Part shown: positions 9,001 through 12,000 of the stretch, piece by piece
Numbering within the stretch: the first letter of the stretch is position 1
Layout: each line of letters starts with the position of its first letter
From: a virus
Lineage: Duplodnaviria > Heunggongvirae > Uroviricota > Caudoviricetes
Length of the DNA stretch: 13,312 nt
IMG/VR virus record: IMGVR_UViG_2703718873_000005
Strand: one strand, 5' to 3'
Position numbers: made by a program

Positions 9001-12000
9001 TGTGCGTAAGGCCACCAATGGCGTGAAACATGTGGTGCCAATGGATGTTATCGAGAGACTACCGGAACTGATGCATGATCCAGAAGCCGTTTATCAGTCC
9101 GCAACTCATCAAAACTCTCTTGTTATTCTGTTTAATCTCAGAGACAGAAATGGTGATCCAGTAATAAGTGCAGTGCACTTAAAGGCCATTAAAAATGGGC
9201 TGGAGATAAACAAAATAGCTTCTGTATATGGAACCGAAAGAGGGAAAAAGTTAAGCAACATGGAGCGCCAGGGCTTAACCCTGTATAGAAGAGAAAAATT
9301 AACCCCAGATGAGGACCTTCCCCGGGGGCTCCAATTGCCCGTGGTGGAAGACTCACTGGGGTCTTTGAATAAAATACTCTATCCTGAAGATATTCGCAAG
9401 GGGCCGTATTACTCCCGCACCAGCAGCCTGACGCCGGAAGAGACAATCGCATCGCGTTTTGTTCGCCAGATGCAGGATAAATTCCAGGTGCTGAAGGCTG
9501 TGCAGGAGAATATCCGTAAAACGGGCGGCAAAGTGGACGACAGTAACAACGCTTATATGGCGGAAGAACTCTTCCATGGGAAGGCGGAAAACGACCTGAA
9601 CGTGATGAAGGAGCGCTATGTTCAGCCGCTGGCTAAATTACTGGCGGACTACAAAATTGCGCAGGCCGATCTGGATGAGTACCTCTACGCCCGTCACGCG
9701 CCGGAACGTAACGCGCATATCGCGAAAATCAACCCGAAAATGCCGGACGGCGGTTCGGGGATGACCAACGCGGAAGCGGCGGAAATCATGCAGCGTGTGC
9801 GTAACAGTGGAAAACAGGCACAGTATGACCGTCTGGCAGGGATTGTTGACGATATGCTGGCCCGTCGCCGTGAGCTTATCCGTGAGGCCGGACTGGAAGA
9901 GAGCGGTGTGGTGGATGCCTGGCAGAACACCTACCGTTACTACGTTCCCCTGAAAGGCCAGGATGTTGACGGTGTGGTGTCACTGCCCCGTACAGGTAAG
10001 GGCTTCACCATCGGCGGACGTGAAAGCAGGCAGGCCATGGGGCGTGCATCCCGTGCACAGTCTCCGTCCACTCAGGCGATACAGGACCTGAGCGAATCGC
10101 TGATCCGCCATCGCAAAAACGAAGTGGGTAACGCCTTCCTGAAACTGGTGCAGGATAATCCCGACAAGGATTACTGGCAGGTATTCACTGATGACAGACC
10201 GGATACCATGCGTGTGATTGCAGAGCGCAAGGACCAGGAAGCTGGTGAAACCATTCGCGAAGTTGTCGAGCGTCCGGTGGCGATGGCAATGATGGCAGAC
10301 CGGTACTTCACCACCAAAAAGAACGGCAAAACGTACTACATCAAACTCCATGATCCGCGCCTGATGCGTGCGATGAAGAATATGGGACCGGAAACCAGTA
10401 ACGCCGTAATCCGTACGCTGGGTAAAGTTAACCGCTTCCTGGCAACGGTGAACACGTCGTATAACCCGGAATTCCTGGTCAGTAACTTCATCCGTGACGT
10501 GCAGACGGCGGTGATGAACCTGAAGGCTGAGCAGGGAAGGAGCGACGGCAAACTGAAAGGGCTGGATAACTTATCCGCACTGGCTGTGGTGAAAGACAGC
10601 CGTTCTGCCATGTCAGCCGTATACGCCAGTCTGCGTGGCAAAACCCTCACGGGCAAAGGTGCACAGTGGCAGAAGGTGTGGAAAGAGTTTGTTGAGGACG
10701 GAGGTAAAACCGGCTGGTTTAACATGGGTGACCTTGAAGGCCAGCAGAAGGAAATGGATCGCCTTGTATCGCTGGCGAAGGGAGGATGGAGAGGCCAGAG
10801 TATCGGTGCATGGAATTCGTTCCTGAACCTGGTCGAGGATGCCAACGGCGCGGTTGAAAACGCACTGCGTCTGTCAGCTTATAAACACGCCCGTGATGCC
10901 GGTTTGTCACGCCAGCAGGCGGCGTCTCTTGCCAAAAACATGACGGTGAACTTTAACCGTCGTGGTGAGCAGGGGGCGCTGATGAACTCGCTGTACATGT
11001 TCGCCAACGCCAGTATTCAGGGAACGGCAAATCTGGTGAGAACGCTCGGACATCTTAATGGTGAGGGACCTTTACTGGAGCGCCTTCGCTGGAAGAATCT
11101 GAATGTTCCGCAGAAAATCGCGCTTGCCGCTGTGGGAGCAGGTTATCTGCTTGGCTCGCTTAACCGCAGCGTGGCGGGTGAGGATGATGACGGGGTTAAC
11201 TGGTATGACAAGGTGCCGTCTCATGTGAAAGAGCGTAACCTCGTCATCATGAAATCGATGTTCGGGGGCAAGGCCGGAGAGTACTGGAGTATTCCTCTGC
11301 CTTACGGGTACAACGTTTTCTTCCTGCTCGGGCATACCGCTGAAGGTGTGGCGGCGGGTGACCTGACGGCGTCCCGTGCTGCCGGTAATGTTGTTGGTGG
11401 TGTGCTTGGTGCATTCAGCCCGATTGGCAGTGAGACGTCGGAAACTCTGTCCGGGGCATTGCTGAAAAATGCAGCGCCGACCATTCTGCGTCCGTTTGCG
11501 AACCTTGCCATGAATGAAAACTTCATGGGGGCGCAGATTTACCAGGAGAACATGCCGTCTGGTACACCAAAACCTGACAGCCAGCTGGGAAGACGTTCAA
11601 CGCCAGAAGCGTACAAGGCGTTTGCATCCTGGCTGAATGCGTTCTCTGGTGGCAGCCAGTACCGTCCCGGCGCGGTGGATATCACACCGGAATCGCTGAA
11701 ATACTGGGTGGACTATATCTCCGGAGGGACAGGGCGCTTCATTTCCAAAACCACGGATGCGGCGGTGAAATCGCTGAATGGTATTGATATACCGGAGCAG
11801 CAGGTGCCCTTCCTGGGGAAAATTTCAGGTGAGGTGATGCCGTATGCTGACCAGCAGAAGATGTACGACCGGATGACAGAGGTTGCGCAGTATCACGCAG
11901 AGCTGAAGAGTCTGACCGGTGCAGAAAGAACGGCGTTCATTGACGAGAACAACGGAAAATTGTCGATGAACGGGCTTATGCAGGATACCCGGAAGAGACT

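Follow-up and report, generated by a model that had tools for sequence, protein, structure and literature searches.

The window analysed here, a stretch of 13,312 nucleotides from a tailed virus (Caudoviricetes; IMG/VR record IMGVR_UViG_2703718873_000005), is the late region of a 933W-like Shiga-toxin (Stx) phage, and the subject of this report is a pair of hydrophobic segments near the C-terminus of the giant protein that it encodes. A mechanical open reading frame (ORF) call places this protein at 3737..12154 (+), with 2805 codons. With its last 1.6 kb the ORF finds 186 phage records at 90-99% DNA identity (185 at 95-99%, the remaining one at 90-95%), each from a Stx-converting or related Escherichia/Shigella podophage, and phage phiSTEC1589-Stx1c is 100% identical over the first kilobase of the window. 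By its sequence, the ORF is the orthologue of 933W L0134 and phi24B gp47, a gene annotated as 'hypothetical protein' in 933W and as an LPD38- or LPD5-domain-containing protein in newer records; neither the gene nor its domains are new. The Pfam domains LPD5 (residues 1064-1213), LPD1 (1374-1453), MuF_C (1763-1851) and LPD38 all score far above threshold. With LPD38 (PF18857) above its gathering score, several unrelated domains within 2805 residues and a gene in a phage late region, the protein has the marks of the polyvalent proteins, which are predicted to be packaged and injected and of which LPD38 is a phage-specific domain (Iyer et al. 2017). In a 2026 cryo-electron microscopy (cryo-EM) preprint on phi24B, gp47 (2811 residues) is reported as abundant in virions by mass spectrometry and unresolved in the maps, and is proposed as an ejection protein that forms or contributes to a transperiplasmic conduit.

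The part of the giant protein that holds the two segments is conserved far beyond the Stx phages. A search with residues 1901-2805 recovered homologues that are 33-58% identical over 94-100% of the query, and the homologous part reaches the C-terminus in every one of them, while their N-terminal domains differ (methyltransferases, PF18760, PF18798, PF18809). When a profile of this part was searched against 1.84 billion representative proteins, 20,584 clusters matched at E <= 1e-3 and 8,484 at E <= 1e-30, and in all of the best 150 matches, in proteins of 900-5535 residues, it lies at the extreme C-terminus. As the homology spans this length and always occupies the extreme C-terminus, the conserved unit is a C-terminal module of about 915 residues (Table 1), of which Pfam LPD38 describes about 200. 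The 597 residues upstream of LPD38 (residues 1891-2487, 9407..11197 (+)), which include the first of the two segments, are matched by no Pfam or NCBIfam model. The motifs HAPERN, GGSGMT, YVPLKG, NTSYNPEF..SNF.RD.QTA, NLTVNFNRRGE and LYMF.NAS.QG are conserved in this part, and the large number of polar residues that are invariant in it points to an active site or to a surface for tight binding. One homologue of 902 residues, P0103, came up as a candidate for the module as a stand-alone protein; it is uninformative in this respect, because its gene starts 40 nucleotides from a contig end and is probably truncated.

The first-pass annotation of this DNA had pointed to Gly/Ala-rich hydrophobic stretches at 11100-11440, near the C-terminus of the giant protein, and both stretches are indeed there. 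The flagged interval corresponds to residues 2455-2568, 240-350 residues before the C-terminus, and contains the core of segment 1, IALAAVGAGYLLGSL (residues 2461-2475, nucleotides 11117-11161), and segment 2, YNVFF...SPIG (residues 2525-2564, nucleotides 11309-11428). On the Kyte-Doolittle scale the two segments are the second and third most hydrophobic 19-residue windows of the protein (KD19 of 1.22 and 1.04, respectively). The 114 flagged residues have a mean Kyte-Doolittle hydropathy (KD) of +0.15, which is the 98.8th percentile among such windows of the protein, and they lie within its most hydrophobic 180-residue window, residues 2413-2592, where KD is +0.14 vs. -0.63 overall and 15% of residues are charged vs. 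27% overall. The Gly/Ala richness holds to a lesser degree: glycine plus alanine make up 26% of the flagged residues vs. 19% of the whole protein, and the enrichment is moderate, with this value at the 85th percentile. Moreover, a 15-mer as hydrophobic as segment 1 is present in 57% of shuffles of the giant protein, and segment 1 taken alone is therefore not beyond chance.

I nevertheless count segment 1 as real, because it is conserved in the family. In homologue sets of 51 and 181 sequences it is the top hydrophobic window of the module, and in a column-by-column analysis its family-averaged hydropathy, 1.31, is the highest of the module. Across 181 members of the family, the highest KD19 at segment 1 is 1.36 in the median and at least 1.6 in 26%, vs. 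a median of 0.87 and 1% for segment 2; a charged residue occurs within segment 1 in 64 of the 181. Segment 1 is preceded by a conserved Q/R-K and followed by N-R...G-E-D-D-D-G, its small residues are conserved at 2464, 2468-2469 and 2473, and Asn2476 is 88% conserved. The net charge of the N-terminal flank is on average +2.2 and positive in 94% of homologues, that of the C-terminal flank on average -4.0 and -2 or lower in 97%. In the acidic loop GEDDDG, D2483 is conserved in 94%, D2485 in 86% and D2484 in 69%; the loop (11177..11194) is followed by a conserved N-W-Y-D-K-[VI]-P, and metal binding or an electrostatic role are possible functions. In segment 2 the conservation is of another kind. 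Y2523, G2524 and G2532 are invariant and P2562 (100%), F2560 (98%) and G2564 (92%) nearly or fully so, yet the middle of the segment (2533-2551) is polar and variable in homologues, and its hydrophobicity is not conserved.

An AlphaFold2 model of residues 1891-2805, built with an alignment of 51 sequences, has a mean predicted local distance difference test (pLDDT) score of 86.4 and a predicted template modelling (pTM) score of 0.83. In this model segment 1 forms a 24-residue helix, 2457-2480 (model residues 567-590, pLDDT 81-91), segment 2 forms two helices, 2526-2539 and 2545-2558 (model residues 636-649 and 655-668), with a Gly-rich turn between them, the segments are separated by a small beta-sheet and the acidic loop, and long helices (residues 2703-2802) end the module. 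A sub-model of 356 residues reproduces the helices, with a pLDDT of 88-95 for segment 1. Among the long helices of the module, 2457-2480 ranks first in hydrophobicity (family KD 0.83) and, with a hydrophobic moment of 0.51, nearly last in amphipathicity, whereas both helices of segment 2 are amphipathic when family-averaged hydropathy is used (moments in Table 1). As residues 2413-2592 hold six of the module's seven most hydrophobic helices, this part is called the hydrophobic heart below. From the model I infer that the segment helices would be buried in the core of a compact module.

Table 1. Features of the giant protein and its upstream neighbours in the window (aa, amino acids)
Feature	Coordinates	Strand	Basis
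Giant virion protein gene (933W L0134 / phi24B gp47 orthologue)	3776..12154	+	ORF, DNA identity, annotation, Pfam, PHROG 616
C-terminal module of ~915 aa (aa 1891-2805), the constant part of giant LPD38 proteins	9407..12151	+	Homologues, AlphaFold2 model
Hydrophobic heart of the module, aa 2413-2592	10973..11512	+	Mean KD +0.14, 15% charged
Segment-1 helix, aa 2457-2480, small-residue-rich, just upstream of the LPD38 boundary	11105..11176	+	AlphaFold helix, family hydropathy
Acidic loop GEDDDG, aa 2481-2486, immediately C-terminal to the segment-1 helix	11177..11194	+	Conservation, flank charge
Pfam LPD38 (PF18857), aa 2488-2693	11198..11815	+	E = 7.8e-49, 166.8 bits vs. cut-off 27
Segment-2 helix a, aa 2526-2539, amphipathic, invariant PLPYGYN upstream	11312..11353	+	Model, moment 1.41
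Segment-2 helix b, aa 2545-2558, amphipathic, followed by conserved F-x-P-I-G	11369..11410	+	Model, moment 1.02
N-terminal Gly/Ala-rich hydrophobic region of the giant protein, aa 111-439	4067..5053	+	Hydropathy; alternative membrane-anchor candidate
90-aa glycine-zipper protein (933W L0132 orthologue)	2158..2430	+	Weak Pfam Gly-zipper_Omp match, PHROG 594
218-aa protein (933W L0130 orthologue), Gly-rich hydrophobic tail	1043..1699	+	Weak alignment with P22 gp7

No relationship of the module to a solved ejection protein, pore former or enzyme is detectable, which follows from sequence, structure and profile comparisons that were all negative; the PDB contains no structural relative of it. Sequence searches of the PDB with the whole protein and with the module profile gave nothing better than E = 0.24, a Foldseek search gave no match with E <= 0.001, and hhalign of the module profile against T7 gp16, P22 gp16 and the C-terminal 1400 residues of N4 gp50 gave probabilities of at most 0.4%.

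The first-pass annotation had likened the two stretches to membrane-interacting or pore-lining helices, and proposed transmembrane (TM) and amphipathic helix prediction as a check. As metrics I used Kyte-Doolittle hydropathy, the Hessa scale and a TopPred-like scan on the Goldman-Engelman-Steitz (GES) scale, the last two in re-implemented form, and took as canonical for a TM segment a KD19 of at least 1.6 or an insertion free energy near zero, together with an uncharged run of about 18-20 residues or more. No window of the flagged region reaches a KD of 1.6, the summed Hessa free energies are +6.2 kcal/mol for segment 1 and +7.9 kcal/mol for segment 2, and the charge-free stretch around segment 1 is 16 residues long in the median and 18 or more in just 7% of homologues. 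Neither segment is thus a canonical TM helix. A Gly-zipper profile searched for at the flagged segments has no match in the C-terminal region. Segment 2 is not a membrane candidate, and segment 1 is at best a short latent one.

Proteins of known ejection systems, for which membrane activity has been shown by experiment, were scored in the same way. The KD19 values are 1.31 for T7 gp14, 1.44, 1.39 and 1.32 for T7 gp16, 1.31 for P22 gp7, 1.18 for P22 gp16, 0.90 for N4 gp52 and 1.29 for the N-terminal domain (NTD) of N4 gp50, a domain that enters nanodiscs and has a TopPred-like score of 0.55. In the same scan the flagged region scores 1.11, 0.91 and 0.79, and T7 gp16 1.77 to 0.96. Averaged over regions, KD is +0.10 and -0.15 for the T7 gp16 regions TMH I and TMH II (TMH, transmembrane helix), respectively, and +0.05 to +0.16 for the N4 gp50 NTD. 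The composition of the flagged region is thus like that of membrane-active ejection regions. However, the soluble, solved RNA polymerase and C-terminal domains (CTD) of N4 gp50 contain six windows with a KD19 of at least 1.0, up to 1.82. Hydropathy had to be rejected as a discriminator, as the segments match membrane-active ejection proteins and core segments of the soluble N4 polymerase and CTD alike; since these soluble domains hold equally hydrophobic windows, hydropathy cannot decide on a membrane role. The metrics also under-score the experimentally supported helices of the N4 NTD. Likewise, the N4 giant protein was discarded as a clean negative control of the pure-cargo type, because the N4 paper reports that the gp50 NTD binds membranes.

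Other parts of the window are membrane candidates at least as good as the flagged region, namely the small glycine-zipper protein encoded upstream and the N-terminal region of the giant protein itself. The TM-like tail of the glycine-zipper protein, with a KD19 of 1.95, a Hessa sum of +1.9 and a TopPred-like score of 1.82, is the best TM-like segment of the window. The N-terminal region (residues 111-439) contains the top 19-mer of the giant protein (residues 195-213, KD19 1.51) and its second most hydrophobic 180-residue window; residues 419-439 are glycine-zipper-like (TopPred-like score 1.26), with weak Gly-zipper Pfam matches at about 419-446. By analogy with the N4 gp50 NTD, this region is a candidate membrane anchor. 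Two hydrophobic poles are a general feature of 123 full-length giant homologues, the one located 130-400 residues from the N-terminus and the other in the LPD38 zone. Both poles exceed any window in the middle in 73% of these homologues, and the N-terminal pole is the stronger in 65%. The first-pass annotation had also combined the flagged stretches with the glycine-zipper protein into a role in membrane penetration during delivery; that context holds in so far as the orthologous virion protein has been proposed to act in ejection and the glycine-zipper neighbour has a TM-like tail, but a membrane role of the flagged region is unproven.

The genes upstream of the giant gene are orthologues of 933W L0129-L0133, and hints in their sequences are consistent with a P22-like ejection cassette. 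The profile of the 218-residue protein aligns with that of P22 gp7 over 52 columns, in register with the N-terminus of mature gp7 (hhalign probability 42%, E = 2.6e-4, which is below significance), and the protein has no match to the gp7 Pfam family PF25688. The upstream protein of 421 residues showed no similarity to P22 gp20.

Several observations concern the giant gene outside its C-terminal module. A GC-rich hairpin followed by a T-run, terminator-like in appearance, lies at 3739..3768 (+) and overlaps the first 13 codons of the mechanical ORF, so that a terminator or attenuator may be located directly upstream of the start of the giant gene. The true start is probably the ATG at 3776 (MAYSEEQ...), which gives a protein of 2792 residues, because this ATG has GGAG upstream, the PHROG 616 alignment begins at residue 14 and one record annotates the start 39 nucleotides downstream of the mechanical one. 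Two HExxH motifs are present outside the Pfam-assigned domains, HEWFH at residue 1297 (7625..7639) and HEIIH at residue 1564 (8426..8440). Judging from the motifs, they could be the processing metallopeptidase or metallopeptidases postulated for polyvalent proteins; a relaxed Pfam scan of both regions and of the N-terminal half found no family, with a weak hint of M76 (E = 0.2). The phi24B preprint calls MuF_C a metallopeptidase that degrades peptidoglycan, while Iyer et al. (2017) describe MuF-C as PBECR, a BECR-fold domain predicted to be an RNase or to bind RNA. As the domain in the giant protein (residues 1763-1851, window 9023..9289) is assigned to PBECR, a peptidoglycan-degrading role for it is unsupported.

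The ends of the window appear to differ from 933W. At the left end, 4..459 (+) encodes the C-terminal 151 residues of an ORF that runs off the window and contains a YadA-like trimeric-autotransporter anchor (PF03895, E = 1.4e-10). This ORF occupies the position of lom in 933W, and an adhesin-type cargo gene appears to have replaced lom; the first ~560 nucleotides are covered by just one of the 186 Stx-phage records, PQ600364.1 (phiSTEC1589-Stx1c, 100% identity). Downstream of the giant gene, 12155..13312 is AT-rich (GC content ~0.40 vs. ~0.55), its minus-strand ORFs of 72-178 residues match no Pfam family, and the stretch is probably a moron or accessory region in which the arrangement departs from that of 933W.

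The reading that I favour, and to which I give about an even chance, is that the flagged segments form three alpha-helices that belong to the hydrophobic core of the conserved, folded module of a giant virion-packaged protein. These helices would hold the module together in the protein as it is made and packaged, and would not be standing transmembrane segments. The module would be the constant chassis of giant injected polyvalent proteins, with variable effector domains on its N-terminal side (here LPD5, LPD1 and MuF_C/PBECR, a predicted RNase), and would provide for incorporation into the head and for passage through the portal and the tail channel at infection. Packaging and exit are the most likely function of such a chassis, given its position and conservation. 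The sequence, the conservation, the helical model and the C-terminal position are results of this analysis, whereas the virion location of the orthologue and the essentiality of one relative are taken from the literature. Any contact with a membrane after ejection would need unfolding of the core, as proposed for T7 gp16, and latent contact of this kind by segment 1 is possible. Several observations weigh against this reading. The best 180-residue window of the soluble N4 domains has a KD of +0.03, so that the flagged region is closer to the membrane-active regions; the KD19 at segment 1 exceeds 1.6 in 26% of homologues; and the charges that flank segment 1 satisfy the positive-inside rule in 94-97% of them. 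High AlphaFold confidence is also given to true TM helices, and the burial of segment 1 is read from such a model. Finally, position and conservation are what the packaging and exit role of the module rests on.

The same observations can be arranged around the membrane. The heart, chiefly helix 2457-2480, might be folded and soluble in the capsid and, after ejection, insert into or bind the inner membrane, with the basic N-terminal flank cytoplasmic and the acidic loop periplasmic, thereby anchoring the giant protein or joining the inner-membrane part of an ejectosome; a similar part has been proposed for the TMH regions of T7 gp16 and for the N4 gp50 NTD. I regard this as a tentative possibility, on the unlikely side. 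It draws on the hydropathy and Gly/Ala content that the heart has in common with TMH I and TMH II of T7 gp16, the N4 gp50 NTD, P22 gp7 and P22 gp16, comparison regions reported to be globular before ejection and membrane-active afterwards, as well as on the uniform hydrophobicity of segment 1 across the family, with its conserved charge asymmetry. The two poles of 73% of giant homologues, as in T7 gp16, the place of the giant gene as the last in a small-to-large series after the head genes (cf. P22 gene 16) and the weak alignment of the 218-residue protein with mature P22 gp7 point in the same direction. Yet there is no canonical TM segment, one homologue in three has a charge within segment 1, homologues do not share the hydrophobicity of segment 2, and neither profile nor fold similarity links the module to T7 gp16, P22 gp16 or any solved pore or ejection protein. 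The N4 control, moreover, deprives the hydropathy match of its power to separate membrane-active from soluble segments, the high conservation with invariant polar residues is unlike the fast-diverging gp16-type proteins, and better candidates are nearby in the glycine-zipper protein and the N-terminal region. The initial likening to membrane-interacting helices is supported in part, by composition and by the flank charges; the support does not extend to a canonical TM segment or to a link with pore formers, and segment 2 is amphipathic within folded LPD38. A bolder version makes the LPD38 module a structurally unprecedented component of an ejectosome, in which the heart opens and helix 2457-2480 inserts with the basic flank inside and GEDDDG outside; together with the N-terminal pole the protein would then be a functional analogue of T7 gp16, with cargo between two membrane-active ends. 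I consider this version doubtful.

Helix 2457-2480 could also serve an interface without any lipid, its small-residue face and conserved Asn packing between the subunits of a trans-periplasmic tube, a ring or tunnel that several copies of the module would form. The proposal of the phi24B authors that gp47 contributes to a transperiplasmic conduit fits this idea, as do the conserved small residues at 2464, 2468-2469 and 2473 with Asn2476, the long helices that end the module, and the helical tunnels formed by T7 gp15, the N-terminal part of T7 gp16 and N4 gp51. However, the monomer model is compact and confident, which suggests that the helix is satisfied within one chain, and no fold similarity to the tunnel structures of T7 gp15 and gp16 in the PDB was found, so that I judge a subunit interface to be improbable. 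That such stretches are simply to be expected from a protein of 2805 residues with 19% Gly and Ala, and have no particular meaning, agrees with the shuffling result and with the 85th percentile for Gly and Ala, but is scarcely credible. Homologues down to 33% identity keep segment 1 in its position, with its hydrophobicity and its flanking motifs, and share the invariant residues of segment 2; the region lies within or adjoins a curated Pfam domain, and it is part of the most hydrophobic 180-residue window of the protein. Chance composition is effectively refuted by this family conservation.

These results bear on how short-tailed Stx phages bring their DNA, along with a ~300-kDa protein, across the envelope of E. 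coli; the phi24B preprint lists the organisation of gp47 as unresolved. The flagged stretch belongs to the sole part of these giant proteins that never varies (>20,000 clusters). If the heart is membrane-active, it would be a new kind of element of an inner-membrane ejectosome and a target for blocking infection by Stx phages. If it is not, it would simply form the core of a domain for packaging and exit, and the task at the membrane would be left to the small upstream proteins and the N-terminal region. What is added here to the known gene is the extent and spread of the module, the absence of a structural relative, the two-pole architecture and the conserved charge-flanked helix.

Among known systems, phi24B gp47 and 933W L0134 (Sepvirinae) are the same gene, with 2806-2811 residues vs. 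2805 here, the same Pfam domains and neighbourhood, and no material difference; the hydrophobic helices and the ~915-residue extent of the conserved module are not discussed in the published phi24B work. More distant counterparts are the 'DarB-like' proteins Bcep22 gp75 and JC1 gp69 of Lessievirus, giant proteins associated with the virion, whose genes lie last in the morphogenesis module, with LPD38 at ~100-300 residues from the C-terminus and head genes related to those of 933W. JC1 gp69 has 4515 residues, with LPD38 at 4195-4401, and PHROG 10089 matches residues 2363-2693 of the giant protein. The cargo is different: JC1 gp69 carries a lytic transglycosylase-like N-terminus, a methyltransferase and a helicase, the protein described here LPD5, LPD1 and MuF_C. 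In phage PTXU04, an LPD38 protein is required for efficient infection.

The virion RNA polymerase gp50 of N4 is likewise a giant packaged protein (3500 residues) with a Gly/Ala-rich region, membrane-binding in N4; it is ejected as 'beads-on-a-string' and is not resolved in virion maps. No sequence similarity links it to either end of the giant protein (BLASTP of the N-terminal region against the NTD, hhalign of the module against the C-terminal 1400 residues). In N4 the membrane-active part of gp50 is its NTD, and the small proteins gp51 and gp52 make channels, an arrangement that the architecture of the giant homologues also resembles. By this analogy, the better candidates for membrane activity here are the N-terminal region and the small proteins encoded upstream. 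To gp7, gp20 and gp16 of P22 the locus is comparable in its small-medium-large gene order after the head-completion genes, and the 218-residue protein, like gp7, has a Gly-rich hydrophobic tail and aligns in register with it; P22 gp16, however, is without similarity to the giant protein (hhalign probabilities of 0.1-0.2% for T7 and P22 gp16). T7 gp16 differs from the giant protein in several respects: the hhalign probability is 0.1% with no fold match, the LPD38 module shows much stronger conservation and numerous invariant polar residues, and the giant protein has no lytic transglycosylase domain in a Pfam scan. Even so, T7 gp16 is the largest protein and the product of the last gene of its ejection cassette, with a similarly mild hydropathy (KD19 of 1.32-1.44 vs. 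1.04-1.22 here), and it contains two Gly/Ala-rich regions of ~170 residues, TMH I close to the N-terminus and TMH II close to the C-terminus, both globular in the virion; after that state, refolding into the membrane has been proposed for them. With their two hydrophobic poles, the giant LPD38 homologues resemble this arrangement.

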